A DNA stretch of 64,000 nt from an uncultured Verrucomicrobiae bacterium (GCA_963718565.1 OY970364.1:1760001-1824000); one strand, 5' to 3'. Counted from the first letter of the stretch, positions 12,263 through 46,821 are shown. Notes: a model not told the origin generated them from the sequence alone. Program-made: numbers and translations.

Positions 12263-12304
12263 TTTTGCCTTTATATTTTGGACAGCAATGATTTACAATT
12301 AATA

Positions 12305-12640
12305 ACCTGAGTTTTGGGTTCATTTTATAGTAAATTGTCGTAGGTTTCGAGGCAATTTTTGCAAATTTTGGCGCGTTCAATATACTGCGCCCGCTTAGGT
12401 TTTGCGAATTTTGACTCTGCGAGACGAAGCAAAATCGAAGCGAAGCGGCCGAACGAGCGAGACCATTGCTGAATAGCAAGGCGAGCGAGAAGGATCGATT
12501 TGGCAAAGTCGCAGCCTGTCAAAATTCGCAAAACCTAAGCGGGCGCAGTATAGCTGGAGGCACCTATGGACGCGCCAAAATGTAAAAAAAGTGCCCGAAA
12601 GATACGGCAAGGTACTATGAAAGGGACCCAAAACTCAGGT
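12305..12640. mobile_element. MITE-like long imperfect palindrome, family D, containing a nested family C element
   Basis: acctgagttttgggt.. / ..acccaaaactcaggt with TA flanks; about 70-bp imperfect arms. Confidence 0.8.
12383..12550. mobile_element. MITE-like element, family C (168 bp)
   Basis: Perfect 33-bp TIR tactgcgcccgcttaggttttgcgaattttgac, TA duplication. Confidence 0.9.
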
Positions 12641-12673
12641 TAATGACAAAAAGACCAGAGGATTTTTTTTAAA

Positions 12674-18490: not shown

Positions 18491-18672
18491 GAGGGAATTG
18501 CAAAATTCCTCGCCGCATAAAATCGCGCTTTTGGCACCTGTCGCCTTGGCGGCGGCTCTCCTACTTATCCAAGTATGCTTTCGCCGCCGCTAACCGAACC
18601 CGCTGTGCGGGTTCTGGCAACAGGTGCCAAAATCATCGATTTTCTGCTGGCGAGGAGTTTTGCAATTCCCTC
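18491..18672 (+). mobile_element. MITE-like element, family A (182 bp)
   Basis: TIR gagggaattgcaaaa.tcctcgcc; TTTA direct repeats; near-identical to 37198-37379. Confidence 0.92.
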
Positions 18673-19148: not shown

Positions 19149-19162
19149 AAGCCGCTCAATTC

Positions 19163-19293
19163 ATACTTCCTCGGAGACCTGTGGCAAGCACTGAATGTCA
19201 TTTGGATCCATGCCTGATTGAGATCGATAAATGCAAAGCCTGGCATGGATCCAAATGACATTCAGTGCTTGCCATAGGTTTTTGAGGACGTAC
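19163..19293. mobile_element. Family B element (131 bp), arm-homogenised variant
   Basis: Perfect 33-bp stem 19182-19214 / 19242-19274; same length as 59337-59467. Confidence 0.88.
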
Positions 19294-28232: not shown

Positions 28233-28403
28233 GGCATCGTAAGCCAATAACGGTCGCGTTTCCGCTGCGCTGGCATCTTCACCTTTGCACCCGGCTGCAT
28301 CGGCCATGTGCTTGCACATGGCCTGTTTCGCCGCCGGCGAAGCCTGATGCAAATCTGAAGCGCTAGCTTTGCGGAAACGCGACGGTTATTGGCTTACAAT
28401 GCC
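28233..28403. mobile_element. MITE-like element, family E (171 bp)
   Basis: 33-bp TIR (31/33) ggcatcgtaagccaataacggtcgcgtttccgc, TTA direct repeats, central 10-bp hairpin. Confidence 0.88.
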
Positions 28404-28441
28404 TTAGACAAAAATCTTCATTCAATGTACTTCTATGATTA

Positions 28442-32172: not shown

Positions 32173-32988
32173 TTATCCCATGTTGTCGGGATGCCATCGC
32201 CTGATGACGAATCGAGGGCCTTCGCTTTCGTCCCATTGATTGACAGGTTTTCGATCTTTCATGATTTCAATCAGGCGCTCAGAGAACTTGGCTTTAATGA
32301 CTCCTTTTGGAGCTCTGCTTTCGATCGTTGTTTTTTCATCGAAAACGCCGACAACGTGTCCTTCCCAGACAATCAAATCAAGGTCGTTGACTTTCTTAAT
32401 GATCCCGCTAACACTCAACCCCTCGATGGGAACAGCCTTCCCAAAATGGATAAGACTTGAAGTATTGCGCGGCGTATAACCTGCGGAGACGTAGTGAAAT
32501 AGCCCAGAGCAATCCAGTCCTTTGAATTTCCATGTGTCTTGAATGAGAGCAGACAGTTGATGCAAAGGGGTTCGGCTCGGATACAATAGTGGTACTAAAT
32601 CGATCCCTTGCGGCCAATTTCCTCCCCAAACATAACGCGTTCCCATGAGCCGTTCTAATTTTGAAAGGATTGTTGGCATGGCAGGAATCACAATCGTTCT
32701 ATTTGCAGGAATATGAGGAACAAGTTGAACAAAGCGGGCATCGATATAGTAATTGCCTCCATAGTCATATTCATGAGTGCTTATGCGCCAGATGGAAGAT
32801 TGGGCGACCCGTTCGAATAGTTGTATTTTGGCGTGAGGGAAGAGTATGGTTTCAACCGTTCTCATCAGACCTTGTTCGTCTAGAGGAAGAGTATCGCCGT
32901 CCTTGCCTCCAAAACAATGAGGAACATGAGGAGTGTTAAAGACTGGAGTGGGCCATTGTGTGACTGCATATTGCATGTTAACACTCAC
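32173..32988 (-). CDS. NlpC/P60 (C40) cell-wall peptidase
   Basis: YVWGG, GLDCSGL, GHV. Start GTG 32988 (GGAGG RBS) or ATG 32976; the longer ORF runs into a MITE. Confidence 0.85.
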   Translation of the reverse strand: MSVNMQYAVTQWPTPVFNTPHVPHCFGGKDGDTLPLDEQGLMRTVETILFPHAKIQLFERVAQSSIWRISTHEYDYGGNYYIDARFVQLVPHIPANRTIVIPAMPTILSKLERLMGTRYVWGGNWPQGIDLVPLLYPSRTPLHQLSALIQDTWKFKGLDCSGLFHYVSAGYTPRNTSSLIHFGKAVPIEGLSVSGIIKKVNDLDLIVWEGHVVGVFDEKTTIESRAPKGVIKAKFSERLIEIMKDRKPVNQWDESEGPRFVIRRWHPDNMG

Positions 32989-33001
32989 ATTTAACCTCCA
33001 A

Positions 33002-33260
33002 GAGGGAATTGCAAAATTTCTCGCCGCATAAAATCGCGCTTTTGGCACCTGTCGCCTTGGCGGCGGCTGCCTTCGGCCCCGGTTCGCTCCTTCGCTCACC
33101 TGCTTTGCTACTTACGAAGGTTCCCCGGACCTTCTCGTGTCTTCGCAGCCACTTATCCAAGTATGCTTTCGCCGCCGCCAACCGAACCCGCTGTGCGTGT
33201 TCTGGCAACAGGTGCCAAAATCATCAATTTTCTGCTGGCGAGGAGTTTTGCAATTCCCTC
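33002..33260 (+). mobile_element. Family A element, long form (259 bp)
   Basis: Same TIRs, TCCAA direct repeats, extra arm 33069-33150; a second right end lies at 33286-33307. Confidence 0.9.
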
Positions 33261-35917: not shown

Positions 35918-37416
35918 TAATGGATAGGGTCATGGTTGAGTTGTGGTTTTCCTTTTTCGTAGGTCACTTTCTTTAGAAAAATGCCGTCACTTGTATATAA
36001 CGAGGCGATTCCTTTTCCCGACTCGATCTTTGAGACGATTTTTTTGTCTCCCTTTTTATAATAAGAAGCTTTGATCAACAGATCATTTTCGTACTCTTCG
36101 ACTAGCATGAGATCTCCATTTTTATACCAAGCAAAACAGACCCCTTGCTTTTTGCTGCCGTTGAATTCGCGCTGGCTTTCAATTTGGCCATTGGAATACC
36201 AGGTTTTTACTTGTCCTTGGATCCGATCCTCATTCCAATGTAAACAGAGCTTTGGCATAGGCCGCTGGCCTTTTTCTGAAAGGTAATATTCCCATTCCTC
36301 GCCATTCTTTTTTCCATCTTTGACGACGTAGGAGCATTTAAGAGTTCCATTAGAATAAAACAACTCGACATCGCCTTCAGGAATGCCGCATGAAAAATGG
36401 ATGAGTGCGTAAAGTTGGCCCTCTTTAAATTGGGCTTGCTTGCCTTGTCCGTCGTTAATTTCGGCGATGGATGTTCCATCGGGAGCATAATAAGAAGCGT
36501 GGATCAGACGGCCATGTTCATAAAATTCTTTCGACAAGAGATGCTTAGGCGTCCAAAAAGCAGTGGCGCTTCCCTCTTTTTCTCCATTGACATGAGGAAT
36601 CTCTTCTAGAAGATTTCCATGTTCATCGAAAACTTGAAGCATGCCATGGATCTCTCCTTGGCGATAAGGGATCATTTTTTGCAGCTGGCCATTGGGGAAA
36701 AAATATTGTGCCGGATTGTGCAAAAGACCCTTTTCATAAGAAAATTCAGCAATCAGGTTTCCTTGATCATCCCAAACTTTGCTTGCCCCTTCAAATACCC
36801 AAGTGGCTTGGGCGAGATCGTGGATGTCTGCCATCCCTTCGATAAGATGGGTTTCAATTTTCATACGGCCATTAGGAAACCATTCTTGATAAATCCCATG
36901 CGCCCTGCCGTCTACAGCTTCCAGGTACTGCCAAAGGTGACCGTTATCGTGGTAACTCGTAATTTTGGACAGACTCTGACCGGCAGAATTTCGACCGAAG
37001 ACGCGCAGTACTTTTTGATAGGGCTGCGGTGTGGAAAAATTCACAGATTTATAACTGGAAAGGCGCTCTTTATTGCTCACTGTCTCTGTGAACCCATTGC
37101 GGTCGACGATTTGCATGCTGACAACAGAATCGCTTTTGTCAGAGGAAGTTCTGGAAGCGCAGCCGGAAAGAACCGCCAGGCTAATCAGTAGAGTTAAGAG
37201 GGAATTGCAAAACTCTTCGCCGCATAAAATCGCGCTTTTGGCACCTGTCGCCTTGGCGGCGGCTCTTCTACTTATCCAAGTATGCTTTCGCTGCCGCCAA
37301 CCGAACCCGCTGTGCGGGTTCTGGCAACAGGTGCCAAAATCATCGATTTTCTGCTGGCGAGGAGTTTTGCAATTCCCTCCTAATTGTAAAATTCGACGCC
37401 AAAAGATTTTTCTCAT
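35917..37416 (-). CDS. MORN-variant/YwqK-repeat lipoprotein (CT648-like) with an in-frame family A insertion in its signal peptide
   Basis: G..HG....WFPNG-type repeats, lipobox LSGC, ATGA overlap with the upstream gene. Confidence 0.85.
   Translation of the reverse strand: MRKIFWRRILQLGGNCKTPRQQKIDDFGTCCQNPHSGFGWRQRKHTWISRRAAAKATGAKSAILCGEEFCNSLLTLLISLAVLSGCASRTSSDKSDSVVSMQIVDRNGFTETVSNKERLSSYKSVNFSTPQPYQKVLRVFGRNSAGQSLSKITSYHDNGHLWQYLEAVDGRAHGIYQEWFPNGRMKIETHLIEGMADIHDLAQATWVFEGASKVWDDQGNLIAEFSYEKGLLHNPAQYFFPNGQLQKMIPYRQGEIHGMLQVFDEHGNLLEEIPHVNGEKEGSATAFWTPKHLLSKEFYEHGRLIHASYYAPDGTSIAEINDGQGKQAQFKEGQLYALIHFSCGIPEGDVELFYSNGTLKCSYVVKDGKKNGEEWEYYLSEKGQRPMPKLCLHWNEDRIQGQVKTWYSNGQIESQREFNGSKKQGVCFAWYKNGDLMLVEEYENDLLIKASYYKKGDKKIVSKIESGKGIASLYTSDGIFLKKVTYEKGKPQLNHDPIH
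37198..37379 (+). mobile_element. Family A element (182 bp), intragenic
   Basis: Near-identical to 18491-18672; flanks TTAA/CTAA. Confidence 0.93.
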
Positions 37417-38048
37417 CGTAGGGCCTCTAAGTTTTCTCGTTTGATCAATTGCATCGTCACGACATACACTTTTTCATTGGGCAAGAGCTCTTTCCTCGCC
37501 AACTTGAAGTCTTGGATGATCAATTGTGATCGGCCCTCTTTGGGACCGTATGGCCAAATCGTGACTCCCTCGATCAGGCAGAGAAGTTGTTTAAGATCTT
37601 CTTCATTGAGCTCAATAGGTTGTTGCTGTTTTTCCTCAGTTTCTCGAAAAAGCTCATTGGCGCGGATCTGTTCTTCGGAAAAGCGCAGGCGATTACCCCC
37701 ATCCTTGAGCTGTTGTAGACGTTTGGCAATCTGTTCTTCTTCAGGACCTTCTAATTGAATCGTCTCGAGTTTTTTGATTTCAGGCAGTAGAAAAGTCAAT
37801 GTTTCCACGTGCTTGTCGAGATAGTGTGGATCGGGATTTTTCAAAGCGGACAAGAGAATGCTTTCCTTTTTTTGACTTTCTTGCATGACGACCATTTTTG
37901 TATGAATTCTTTCCATTTCCTTTTCGAGTTGTTCTAATTTTTGCAATCCAAAGAAGAAGTTAAAAAGAAAAATTAAAAAAGGAACAGGGGCTGCTACCAA
38001 TACAAGGCAAAGGGAAAAGGGAGAAAGCTTACAAGAGAATTTCCTCAT
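37413..38048 (-). CDS. Conserved chlamydial membrane-anchored hypothetical protein (CT647-like)
   Basis: N-terminal TM helix plus coiled coil; ATGA overlaps on both sides. Confidence 0.75.
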   Translation of the reverse strand: MRKFSCKLSPFSLCLVLVAAPVPFLIFLFNFFFGLQKLEQLEKEMERIHTKMVVMQESQKKESILLSALKNPDPHYLDKHVETLTFLLPEIKKLETIQLEGPEEEQIAKRLQQLKDGGNRLRFSEEQIRANELFRETEEKQQQPIELNEEDLKQLLCLIEGVTIWPYGPKEGRSQLIIQDFKLARKELLPNEKVYVVTMQLIKRENLEALR

Positions 38049-39572: not shown

Positions 39573-41588
39573 TCAAGGGCAGGAGACGTCCGCCTCTGTA
39601 AGAGTGATAGTCCCCGATGCGTTAAACGGCGCGCCAACATTTCCCACAAGAGGCGACAAAATGAATGTGCTGCCACCTGTTTCATTTAAAGAATAACCCG
39701 ACGAACTAGAATTATCAGTAAGTTGTAGCTGAAGTGTAGAGGAGGCATCCGATGTTGATAAAACGCCAAAAGAAGCGGCGTTAGTTATCGTATTGTTCTC
39801 TACATTCGCTGAAACCAAAGCACTAAATAAGCTGTCCACAGTTATTCCTACGAACAGTGCTTGATTAATTTGATTTTCAGAAATTGTACCACATACATTA
39901 GTTCCTGAAAAACCTCCTGAAAGATTAATTCCATTATCGCAATTGATGATCAAATTATTTTGGATACTAGCATTAGTATTAGCTCCGAGAGTCTGCGAGT
40001 CAACAGTAATCCCAAAACCATTGTTCACAACGGTATTTTGCACAAGATTATTTGTAACAACAATGGAAGAAGTCACAGGAAGGGTAAAATTAAAAATACT
40101 AATGCCGTTGATTAAACCGGCCATAGTTCCATTTGTTGTTACTGTGTCGATGATGTTATTTTCAATCATCAAATTTCCCTGGCAATTATGCAGAGAAATC
40201 GCTCCGCTGATCACCGCGCAATTGGTGAAGATATTGTTGTGAATATAAGTATTAGTAATTCCTAAAAAAGTGGGAAGAACCGAGGGATCGCCGCCATTAA
40301 TTCCATTCCCGCCATTCGTATTGGAAATGTAGAGACCTGAAACTTCACAATCATTGCCTAAATTGACGCCGGATGTATTGAGGATTGCATTTGTGATGTT
40401 GGGAAAGGTTTTGCTTTGGGCGGGCACTGTAATCGAACCTTGCGTCGTTGGGAATACTTGGCTGATCCCTGATCCGAAAAGCTTTTGCCCGTCCTGCAAT
40501 ACAATGCCCGCATCCATCCCTTGGGTTGTGCCATTCCCCGGAAATACATAAATGGCATCCCATGGAGAGGAGGCATTCTGGGCCTGAACCAGTGTCGGGA
40601 AGGGACTTTCAATGCTTCCAGCAGAGCTGCTCGTATTGTCTACGAACCACACTTGCCAAGGGTTGCCTGTTGCAGGATTGATCGCTTTTTCCCTTCTTGT
40701 CACTTTTTTTACCACTGGAATTTCAAAGCGATAAGGGGCAAATGCAGCACGTGAAAGAGCAAGATTGGTTTGGGATGAGCACTCTTTTCCTCGGCTTTGC
40801 AACCTTTTTCCAAAAGGAAAGTTAAAAGCAATTGTCCCTTGTACAACGCTGCGGAAAAGATGGTCATAAGAATAAGAAGCTTCTAAAGCAATGTACTCTT
40901 TATAACGGCCGAGCAGACGTGTTTTGCCTCCCCAGGAGGAAGCATGCGGAGAAGAAAAATAATAGGGGCCAACTCCTGCATAGAGATCATATTTTGTACT
41001 TTGTGTGAGATGAGCACCCACTTCCGCATCTCCTCCAATCATCACATCTCTCTGCTTAGCCTTTAAGATAACGTGATGTCCCTTAAAACTGTCGAAATCA
41101 AAATGGTACTTGTGACTTTTCTGATTACCAATGGGGAAATACCCATTCATACGGTATTCCATGCGGTTACCGAGTAATTCGATGCCAGGGCTCAATTGTT
41201 GAGGAGTCAGATGATGCCTGTCTTGGCGCACATCGTAATAGAGATAATAGCCTAACACGTGGCCAATCGAACAGAGAAGGGAGCGGCCGCCCACTCCAAC
41301 ATTTCCACCAAACTTGCCGTTATCAAAAACATGTCCGCGCAGATCGATAAAAGGCATGAAAGAGGTATTGGCATTGTAAATACCGAATCCTTCTAACGTG
41401 GTATACCCCTCTTGATATCCTACTCCTCTTGCTTCCGTATGTCGTAGCCCCGCATGCATGACGTGAAATTGTTTTTTATTTTCTGGGGAAGGATTGCTCT
41501 TTGGAGATGTTGGCTTTTTTTTCGGCTCATCAACGAAGGCTTGATTGCATAACAATGAAGAGAGAAGAAGAAGTGAATAAAATTTCAT
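39573..41588 (-). CDS. Inverse-autotransporter (invasin-type beta-barrel) protein with beta-helix passenger, copy 1
   Basis: Signal peptide; PFIDLRGH, GNVGVGGR, YYDVR, RMNGYFP; WFVDN..GSIESPF.TL..A linker; Asn-rich repeats. Confidence 0.8.
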   Translation of the reverse strand: MKFYSLLLLSSLLCNQAFVDEPKKKPTSPKSNPSPENKKQFHVMHAGLRHTEARGVGYQEGYTTLEGFGIYNANTSFMPFIDLRGHVFDNGKFGGNVGVGGRSLLCSIGHVLGYYLYYDVRQDRHHLTPQQLSPGIELLGNRMEYRMNGYFPIGNQKSHKYHFDFDSFKGHHVILKAKQRDVMIGGDAEVGAHLTQSTKYDLYAGVGPYYFSSPHASSWGGKTRLLGRYKEYIALEASYSYDHLFRSVVQGTIAFNFPFGKRLQSRGKECSSQTNLALSRAAFAPYRFEIPVVKKVTRREKAINPATGNPWQVWFVDNTSSSAGSIESPFPTLVQAQNASSPWDAIYVFPGNGTTQGMDAGIVLQDGQKLFGSGISQVFPTTQGSITVPAQSKTFPNITNAILNTSGVNLGNDCEVSGLYISNTNGGNGINGGDPSVLPTFLGITNTYIHNNIFTNCAVISGAISLHNCQGNLMIENNIIDTVTTNGTMAGLINGISIFNFTLPVTSSIVVTNNLVQNTVVNNGFGITVDSQTLGANTNASIQNNLIINCDNGINLSGGFSGTNVCGTISENQINQALFVGITVDSLFSALVSANVENNTITNAASFGVLSTSDASSTLQLQLTDNSSSSGYSLNETGGSTFILSPLVGNVGAPFNASGTITLTEADVSCP

Positions 41589-41699: not shown

Positions 41700-43784
41700 T
41701 CATTGTCCAGGGCAGGATACGTCCGTCTCTGTTAGAGTAATAGTCCCCGCTATGTTAAACGGTGCTCCAACATTTCCCACAAGAGCTGACAAGATGAATT
41801 CACTGGATCCTGTTTGAATTAAAGAATACCCTGACGAACTAGAATTATCAGTAAGTTGTACATGGAGTGTAGAGGAACTATTCGATATTGCTAAAACGCC
41901 AGAAACAGCTGCGTTAGTTATCGTATTGTTCTCTACATTTGCTGAAACCAAAGAACTTAATGTGCTTACCATATTTACTCCTGCAGACAGCGCTTGATTA
42001 ATTTGATTTCCAGAAATTGTAGCACATATATTAGTTCCTGTATTACTTGCGAAAATATGAATTCCGTTAACACAATTAGTGATCAAATTATTTTGGATAC
42101 TAGCATTAATATTATCTCCGAGACCCTGCGAATCAACAGCAATCCCAGCACCTCCATGCCCATTCGCAGCGGTATTTTGCACAATATTATTTGTAATAAC
42201 AACGGAAGAAGTCACAGGAAGGTGAAAATTAAAAATATTAATGCCGCTGATTAAACCGCCTAGGCTTCCAATTGTTACTGTGTCGATGGTGTTATTTTCA
42301 ATCATCAAATTTCCCTGGCAATTATGCAGAGAAATCGCTCCATTGGTCACCGTACAGTTGGTGAAGATATTGTCGTGAATATAAGTATTAGTGATTCCTA
42401 AAAAAGTGGGAAGAACCGAGGGATCGCCGCCATTAATTCCATTCCCGCCATTCGTATTGGAAATGTAGAGACCTGAAACTTCACAATCATTGCCTAAATT
42501 GACGCCGGATGTATTGAGAATTGCATTTGTGATGTTGGGAAAGGTTTTGCTTTGGGCGGGCACTGTAATCGAACCTTGCGTCGTTGGGAATACTTGGCTG
42601 ATCCCTGATCCGAAAAGCTTTTGCCCGTCCTGCAATACAATGCCCGCATCCATCCCTTGAGTTGTGCCATTCCCCGGAAATACATAAATGGCATCCCATG
42701 GAGAGGAGGCATTCTGGGCCTGAACCAGTGTCGGGAAGGGACTTTCAATGCTTCCAGCAGAGCTGCTCGTATTGTCTACGAACCACACTTGCCAAGGATT
42801 GCCCGTTGCAGGATTGATCGCTTTTTCCCTTCTTGTCACTTTTTTTACCACTGGAATTTCAAAGCGATAAGGGGCAAATGCAGCACGTGAAAGAGCAAGA
42901 TTGGTTTGGGATGAGCACTCTTTCCCTCGGCTTTGCAACCTTTTTCCAAAAGGAAAGTTAAAAGCAATTGTCCCTTGTACAACGCTGCGGAAAAGATGGT
43001 CATAAGAATAAGAAGCTTCTAAAGCAATGTACTCTTTATAACGGCCGAGCAGACGTGTTTTGCCTCCCCAAGAGGAAGCATGCGGAGAAGAAAAATAATA
43101 GGGGCCAACCCCTGCATAGAGATCATATTTTGTACTTTGTGTGAGATGAGCACCCACTTCCGCATCTCCTCCAATCATCACATCTCTCTGCTTAGCCTTT
43201 AAGATAACGTGATGTCCCTTAAAACTGTCGAAATCAAAATGGTACTTGTGACTTTTCTGATTACCAATGGGGAAATACCCATTCATACGGTATTCCATGC
43301 GGTTACCGAGTAATTCGATGCCAGGGCTCAATTGTTGAGGAGTCAGATGATGCCTGTCTTGGCGCACATCGTAATAGAGATAATAGCCTAACACGTGGCC
43401 AATCGAACAGAGAAGGGAGCGGCCGCCCACTCCAACATTTCCACCAAACTTGCCGTTATCAAAAACATGTCCGCGCAGATCGATAAAAGGCATGAAAGAG
43501 GTATTGGCATTGTAAATACCGAATCCTTCTAACGTGGTATACCCCTCTTGATATCCTACTCCTCTTGCTTCCGTATGTCGTAGCCCCGCATGCATGACGT
43601 GAAATTGTTTTTTATTTTCTGGGGAAGGATTGCTCTTTGGAGATGTTGGCTTTTTTTTCGGCTCATCAACATGTCCGAGCAGATCGGTAAAAGGCATGAA
43701 AGAGATATTGGCATTGTAAATACCGAAAACGAATGCCTGATTGCATAAAAATGAAGAGAGAAGAAGAAGTGAATAAAATTTCAT
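41700..43784 (-). CDS. Inverse-autotransporter protein with beta-helix passenger, copy 2 (tandem paralog)
   Basis: About 430 aa identical to copy 1, divergent C-terminus, 20-aa insert near the N-terminus. Confidence 0.8.
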   Translation of the reverse strand: MKFYSLLLLSSFLCNQAFVFGIYNANISFMPFTDLLGHVDEPKKKPTSPKSNPSPENKKQFHVMHAGLRHTEARGVGYQEGYTTLEGFGIYNANTSFMPFIDLRGHVFDNGKFGGNVGVGGRSLLCSIGHVLGYYLYYDVRQDRHHLTPQQLSPGIELLGNRMEYRMNGYFPIGNQKSHKYHFDFDSFKGHHVILKAKQRDVMIGGDAEVGAHLTQSTKYDLYAGVGPYYFSSPHASSWGGKTRLLGRYKEYIALEASYSYDHLFRSVVQGTIAFNFPFGKRLQSRGKECSSQTNLALSRAAFAPYRFEIPVVKKVTRREKAINPATGNPWQVWFVDNTSSSAGSIESPFPTLVQAQNASSPWDAIYVFPGNGTTQGMDAGIVLQDGQKLFGSGISQVFPTTQGSITVPAQSKTFPNITNAILNTSGVNLGNDCEVSGLYISNTNGGNGINGGDPSVLPTFLGITNTYIHDNIFTNCTVTNGAISLHNCQGNLMIENNTIDTVTIGSLGGLISGINIFNFHLPVTSSVVITNNIVQNTAANGHGGAGIAVDSQGLGDNINASIQNNLITNCVNGIHIFASNTGTNICATISGNQINQALSAGVNMVSTLSSLVSANVENNTITNAAVSGVLAISNSSSTLHVQLTDNSSSSGYSLIQTGSSEFILSALVGNVGAPFNIAGTITLTETDVSCPGQ

Positions 43785-46801: not shown

Positions 46802-46821
46802 GAGGGAATTGCAATTCCCTC
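46802..46821. repeat. Family A minimal footprint
   Basis: TATT-gagggaattgcaattccctc-TATT. Confidence 0.85.

Follow-up and report, generated by a model that had tools for sequence, protein, structure and literature searches.

A palindromic element of 182 bp stands where a conserved chlamydial lipoprotein gene encodes its signal peptide, and leaves the reading frame of the gene open. The element is a MITE by its inverted ends, its target duplication and its small, multi-copy, non-coding form, and it belongs to a family of dispersed repeats referred to here as family A. From the sequence, we infer that the insert is probably translated as a long, positively charged leader, which would be discarded by cleavage during lipoprotein processing. 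An initial annotation had described the in-frame insertion; what is added here is the ancestral start of the gene, as judged from conservation, indications that the leader is a repeated landing site kept readable, and a likely older remnant at the same site.

The window, i.e., the whole 64-kb stretch of DNA that was analysed, corresponds to G000:C1:1760001-1824000, G000 being the code of the source genome, and the features that bear on the insertion are collected in Table 1. The predicted host precursor consists of MRKIFWRRILQL, followed by 62 element-derived residues, LTLLISLAVLSGC and the part with MORN-variant repeats, the mature lipoprotein being predicted to begin at Cys86. The element lies 12 codons into the host gene (codon 12/13). 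As the initial annotation had computed, its 182 bp and the 4-bp duplication add 186 bp, or 62 codons, to the host ORF, and because this length is divisible by three, the downstream frame is kept. Read in the minus-strand host frame, the element gives GNCKTPRQQKIDDFG...GEEFCNSL without stops; it is also open on the other strand, as had been claimed, where an ORF at 37073..37444(+) reads through it.

Table 1. Coordinates of the features in and around the interrupted lipoprotein gene (positions in the window).
Feature	Position	Strand	Basis or remark
Host gene, conserved chlamydial lipoprotein with MORN-variant repeats, 499 codons	35917..37416	-	ORF; PF07661 E = 6e-21
Ancestral ATG start, overlapping the upstream TGA (ATGA)	37414..37416	-	conserved upstream frame in relatives
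Intact predicted hydrophobic core and lipobox, LTLLISLAVLSG-C	37159..37197	-	hydrophobicity scan; orthologues share core and Cys
Family A MITE, 182 bp	37198..37379	no strand	alignment of 27 full copies and consensus
Target-site duplication, left, TTAA	37194..37197		flank of family A copy
Target-site duplication, right, CTAA	37380..37383		flank of family A copy
Probable remnant of an older element end, encoding WRRILQL	37382..37401		16/20 bases match element end
Upstream gene, 211 aa, no Pfam family	37413..38048	-	adjoins lipoprotein gene in 103/129 family genomes
Intergenic sister copy, family A	18491..18672		TAG where the 37198-37379 copy has TGG
259-bp family A variant, same ends, ~75 extra internal bases	33002..33260		genome 1793002-1793260

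The ends of the element, GAGGGAATTGCAAAAC and GTTTTGCAATTCCCTC, are mutually inverted, and its arms pair over most of its length. In all 27 full family A copies, one end is GAGGGAATTGCAAAAC and the opposite end is its complement. The 4-bp target duplication is perfect in 22 of the 27 and has one mismatch in the other five, including the copy at 37198-37379, with TTAA on one flank and CTAA on the other; the duplicated target bases are 85% A+T, against 56% genome-wide. A BLAST search of the element against its own genome retrieved the 27 full-length copies at 93-98% identity, and a query with the consensus detected family A-related sequence at 137 loci of this single-contig genome (2,284,058 bp). 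Pairing of the ends separates exact 182-bp copies (n=23), copies of 257-259 bp that have family A ends and ~75 extra internal bases (n=18) and copies of 70-72 bp (n=7), in addition to many fragments. When the 4-bp duplication is added, the 182-bp form and the 257-bp form (7 of the 18 copies sized 257-259 bp) come to a whole number of codons, but the 258- and 259-bp copies do not; the family A consensus is stop-free in three of its six frames. Folding of 271 nt of RNA around the element gives -134 kcal/mol, compared with -77 +/- 4.6 for shuffled sequences (z = -12.5); an Rfam search of the element returned no match. The 259-bp variant in the window lies at the beginning of a 308-codon ORF (32173-33099, minus strand) that starts within it, which may be an N-terminal case or an over-extended ORF.

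The insertion is recent, since the copy differs from the family A consensus at only 3 of 182 positions (98.4% identity), and the three differences are private to it. Because the copy is young, its open frame alone is no sign of selection. The initial annotation had drawn attention to a TAG in the intergenic sister copy (18590-18592, CTA on the given strand and TAG on the minus strand) where the copy in the lipoprotein gene has TGG. The difference is real but carries no information on selection: TGG is the consensus state and T is present in only 2 of 27 copies, so the open codon at 37198-37379 does not testify to selection either. The private differences, together with the copy's own target duplication, also bear on whether a repeat copy could have been misplaced in the single-contig assembly. 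The repeat is abundant, and contigs from four public short-read DNA runs are short at the locus and end at repeat edges, neither crossing the element nor showing an empty-site join; however, the flanks, when joined, make a plausible signal peptide, inserts of this kind occur in independent assemblies of relatives, and an assembly artefact is hardly credible.

A family A transposase gene bounded by GAGGGAATTGCAAAAC-type ends was not found in this genome among end pairs 0.4-4 kb apart. The candidate autonomous parents in that range proved to be either ordinary genes flanked by two copies or MITEs with a nested IS of ISAs1-like, IS3-like or possibly IS66-like type, the latter two labels coming from ORF reading and not from Pfam. 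Among the candidates was a 1740-bp unit with family A-like ends (locus L084, genome 1624273-1626012), which is instead another MITE carrying a nested 1301-bp ISAs1-like IS; this different MITE has the 18-bp end GAGGGAATTGCAAAACTA in common, as well as a 4-bp duplication (TGAA). The 1301-bp IS is present in 12 copies at 99.8-100% identity and encodes a 424-aa transposase with DDE_Tnp_1_assoc and DDE_Tnp_1 domains, and an additional copy at 635510-636785 matches over 1276 bp only. A 20-bp perfect palindrome, GAGGGAATTGCAATTCCCTC, occurs at 46802-46821 of the window and at genome positions 922454, 361110 and 1426097. It corresponds to two family A ends abutted without an interior, perhaps an empty shell or the footprint left by excision. 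Other long inverted-repeat pairs of the window (12303-12642, 19160-19293, 24150-24320 and 28228-28408) look like further MITE families, one of which, with ends like those in G351/P0064, also precedes a PBP4-type gene (genome 1736650-1736787).

On the evidence of conservation, the ATG at 37414-37416 is the ancestral start and the element lies inside ancestral coding sequence. This follows from 18 related loci, in which the frame ahead of the Met is conserved as '...SVCR.DA.DQKRK.G..M', i.e., over the stretch shared with the 3' end of the upstream gene, and in which the Met is directly followed by a short lipoprotein signal. The ATGA overlap that had been taken earlier as support for this start is thus the same one that relatives conserve, and the start of translation is placed upstream of the element. 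Between codon 1 and codon 101 of the host ORF there is no in-frame ATG, GTG or TTG, near-cognate codons only. The next and sole other canonical in-frame start is the ATG at codon 101, and translation could in principle begin past the element, yielding a protein without a signal peptide, or Met101 could be the true start of the gene. Both variants of a downstream start are very improbable, because Met101 follows the lipobox Cys by 15 residues and falls within the best-conserved block of the family (VSMQIVDRNGF), nearly all listed family members have a signal peptide, only near-cognate codons stand in between and a promoter-like site was not found. More generally, no promoter or terminator was found on the strand of the host gene. 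Further upstream in the same cluster lie two tandem paralogues of 671 and 694 codons (39573-41588 and 41700-43784, both on the minus strand), whose DNA is 83-97% identical in parts and which have no Pfam match. A type II secretion operon context was considered and set aside, the gene two upstream matching T2SSL at E = 0.004 only, below the Pfam cut-off.

Within the first 100 residues of the predicted precursor, the only hydrophobic windows are at 69-88, with the core LLTLLISLAVLSG, and end in L-S-G-C86. The insert itself has no hydrophobic window and contains 10 K+R against 4 D+E, for a net charge of +6. The predicted n-region, composed of MRK..RR and the insert, would therefore be hydrophilic, net positive and ~70 residues long, far outside the usual range. 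The lipobox of bacterial lipoproteins follows the pattern [LVI][ASTVI][GAS]C, and the host leader agrees with the overall lipoprotein layout by its positive n-region, its hydrophobic core and its lipobox L-S-G-C86. The genome encodes the enzymes expected to act on such a precursor, namely lgt (LGT E = 4e-63) and LspA (Peptidase_A8 E = 5e-30). For the mature lipoprotein, a search for solved structures resembling it found none at E <= 0.001.

The initial annotation had also proposed that removal of the insert restores a typical lipoprotein signal. The signal peptide restored in this way is 24 residues long, ~8 more than in orthologues, and the surplus corresponds to the WRRILQL stretch encoded at 37382-37401. 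A level of agreement with the element end as high as that of these bases is reached by 5 of 1500 random genome windows, and the stretch resembles the right end of the element in G004, a related genome described below. It is probably the remnant of an earlier insertion. A plausible history of the site would be an old insertion, perhaps shared with G004, then an in-frame deletion of most of it, and finally the new insertion into the remnant.

Most orthologues carry no such segment, in agreement with what had been anticipated. Of the best 120 homologues, ~115 are 399-439 aa long with a short M..(L)(A/S)(G/S)C signal (e.g., MRKIFLSLILAVLCGC) and no inserted segment, and a search with 65 residues from the beginning of the mature part recovered the lipoprotein gene in 378 of the 400 genomes that were sampled across the order. 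Long N-termini with palindromic inserts are found in five of the best 120, i.e., the host gene itself, P0003 (G004), P0028 (G006), P0048 and P0064. As this homologue set consists of gene calls and is biased towards open frames, inserts were also counted from the DNA between the two genes in the same family (129 genomes). The C-terminal 80 residues of the upstream protein were matched in 104 of these genomes and the N-terminal 65 residues of the mature lipoprotein in 117, and the gap was counted in the 103 with both matches on one contig and strand, leaving out G478 (upstream match only) and 14 genomes with the lipoprotein match only. The distance from the upstream gene to the Cys codon region is 14-62 nt in 96 of the 103 genomes (median of all 103, 37 nt) and exceeds 100 nt in seven: G000 (254), G455 (231), G004 (227), G006 (209), G105 (192), G436 (185) and G462 (110). 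In G000, G004, G006 and G462, the extra DNA lies past the ancestral ATG, inside the signal peptide, and in 4/4 it is in frame and open. In the remaining three it lies ahead of the start codon, in the spacer before the ATG in G436 and G455 and, in G105, as a palindromic element with the ends GGCTATCCC and GGGATAGCC between the upstream gene's ATGA and a second TCATGA (L081, G105:C19:32400-33100). The target duplication of the latter copied the start codon, and thereby kept the lipoprotein start directly after the element.

Two further in-frame signal-peptide inserts, in G351 (another family) and G148, came to light through inspection of long open frames, a search that is biased; G447 and G448 also have long leaders, yet an element was resolved in neither. 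At least three element families are represented at this leader. The first is family A, with G000, G148 and a diverged relative in G004; the second has ATACCGAAATCGTTTCAAAAATTGG ends and is present in G006 and as a remnant in G462; the third has ACACATCATGTTTCAAAAATTGG ends and is present in G351 and seemingly also in P0064. Compared with the G000 consensus, the G004 element shows ~80% identity; it is inserted the other way round with respect to the gene, and its junctions differ. The identity of the G004 copy to the best sibling in its own genome, just 82%, points to an old copy, with the proviso that this genome is 74% complete and that repeats assemble badly; for the G006 copy, a sibling at 97% identity exists. 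Of the six frames, 3, 2, 1 and 2 are free of stops in the respective inserted segments, and the chance that all three unbiased cases with clear ends would be readable is 0.5 x 0.33 x 0.17 ~ 0.03, for genomes that are related to one another. With four unbiased inserts in related genomes, the sequences are suggestive, not strong, evidence that the same leader was hit repeatedly and kept readable. The mature parts of G000 and G004, the closest pair and both insert-bearing, differ by dN 0.072 and dS 0.643, and their ratio of 0.11 resembles that of insert-free pairs (0.05-0.08), indicating selection on the mature protein. A separate case is P0108, an orthologue in another chlamydia that has a 62-residue insert (KSRLQNSG...GTGVLQPAL) at residues ~220-281, in the mature part between MORN repeats; it looks like a family A-type element in its other open frame.

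Altogether, these observations lead to a probable course of events in which a MITE with a 4-bp duplication recently entered codon 12/13 of the signal-peptide region and landed in one of its three stop-free frames, leaving the gene open from the ancestral start. Translation would yield a precursor with the ~70-residue hydrophilic, net-positive leader, followed by the untouched hydrophobic core and lipobox LSGC. This lengthened precursor would still go to the Sec machinery and be lipidated by Lgt at Cys86, after which LspA would cut it, so that the element-encoded peptide would depart with the signal peptide and the mature protein would be the same as before. Two features run counter to such a discard: the ~70-residue leader far exceeds that of any orthologue, and a very stable hairpin begins 36 nt past the ATG. 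As RNase III (rnc) is encoded in the genome, a message with such a hairpin could be cleaved or poorly translated; a search for RNA runs covering 36500-38000 of the window found none. It is therefore conceivable, although unlikely, that the insertion was a recent harmful hit, mild or strong, in which the hairpin or the over-long leader lowers expression or export and the gene is heading for loss, with decay not yet visible. The near-identity of the copy to the consensus fits such a course, and since the consensus frame is open anyway, openness costs nothing. Nevertheless, all four unbiased signal-peptide inserts are in frame and open, as are the two cases found via long open frames, the diverged G004 copy stands alongside an intact gene under the dN/dS given above, and the retention of the gene across the order suggests that its loss should be costly.

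The same hairpin, placed after a translationally coupled start (ATGA), might instead throttle or time the last gene of the cluster, e.g., via the RNase III encoded by rnc, and the repeated colonisation of the same spot among relatives would agree with a regulatory role of this kind. However, the occupants belong to different, unrelated element families, 96 of 103 relatives have no insert, the G000 copy is young and no copy-specific feature is conserved, all of which makes regulation an improbable explanation. Translation followed by removal of the insert with the signal peptide thus remains the preferred reading.

Family A is not confined to this gene. A scan of all copies gave 20 candidate open frames running through family A sequence, four of which are confirmed by Pfam as interruptions of known domains or proteins: an RluA-type pseudouridine synthase, in which the insert falls within the PseudoU_synth_2 match; MutY, where it follows HhH-GPD and precedes the second half of NUDIX_4; a MenF-like chorismate-binding enzyme, with the insert before Chorismate_bind; and an oligopeptide-type ABC ATPase, with the insert 17 residues from the start, before ABC_tran. 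About 12 more copies lie directly after the predicted starts of exported-type proteins (solute-binding and FKBP-type proteins, an outer-membrane protein, glycosyltransferases, NamZ and a D-Ala-D-Ala carboxypeptidase). Frame +1 of the consensus encodes a hydrophobic, signal-peptide-like helix (ALLAPVALAAALLLI), and the in-ORF copies read in this frame (135133, 923878, 1018889, 1182912, 1736469, 1881167, 2027781 and 2050868) lie, in 8/8 cases, at the beginning of proteins predicted to be exported or to reside in the membrane. Such proteins would have two consecutive hydrophobic segments and therefore a topology problem.

The four interrupted enzymes lend weight to the comparison with the RPEs of Rickettsia, which the initial annotation had put forward and which stands as an analogy. 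The original papers on RPEs are reportedly those of Ogata and colleagues. RPEs are presented, in a passage of a 2024 MITE review, as short palindromic repeats that interrupt many unrelated genes in frame (PMC10969869), and the term 'signal peptide' occurs 0 times in that review. Like RPEs, family A is a short, palindromic, dispersed repeat with many copies in frame in unrelated genes, to which it adds a family-specific peptide, and its host is an obligate intracellular bacterium. It differs in having clear terminal inverted repeats and a 4-bp target duplication, in belonging to a host of a different phylum and, here, in standing in a cleavable signal peptide. By analogy, family A appears to work like an RPE (RPE-1 to RPE-10) and is set beside them by behaviour, not by sequence, without being filed as a member.

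Two other known systems offer partial parallels. Correia/NEMIS, ERIC, RUP and BOX elements are short multi-copy sequences without coding capacity that are bounded by terminal inverted repeats, duplicate their target and give transcripts able to form hairpins, and these families are mostly intergenic. All four are listed as bacterial MITEs in the review mentioned above (PMC10969869). Family A shares their small, non-coding, multi-copy nature, inverted ends, target duplication and hairpin-forming transcript, but its length plus duplication is divisible by three in the 182- and 257-bp forms and half of its frames are stop-free. The extended signal peptides of autotransporters (ESPR) are N-terminal extensions of ~25 residues, a conserved and evolved motif that precedes a normal core and is removed with the signal peptide. 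The host leader resembles them as a long N-terminal extension before an otherwise normal hydrophobic core, with predicted removal along with the signal peptide; in contrast, the extension here consists of 62 transposon-derived residues with no sign of conservation for function. A search of the open-access full-text literature found no description of such elements in Chlamydiae or in signal peptides.

It is tempting, if tentative, to propose that chlamydial signal peptides serve as a safe harbour for translatable MITEs, and that this leader could have been colonised independently at least five to six times, by at least three families and in both orientations, with the frame always kept. The elements may in turn be shaped to survive in coding sequence, as their length plus duplication is divisible by three, half of their frames are stop-free and one frame encodes a signal-peptide-like helix. 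If this is true, the cut-off leader would act as a lasting reservoir that supplies elements to mature proteins, as in P0108. Apart from this proposal, the case would extend the Rickettsia-type phenomenon of selfish repeats read as protein to a second phylum of intracellular bacteria, and it points to a simple rule of survival, whereby inserts persist in the part of a protein that is discarded. The locus also provides a natural test case for how long or odd a working lipoprotein leader can be, and for ribosome read-through of a near-perfect 180-nt hairpin. For genome annotation, it carries the warning that a long N-terminus in a chlamydial gene may be genuine, and that true starts can be concealed by repeat-masking.
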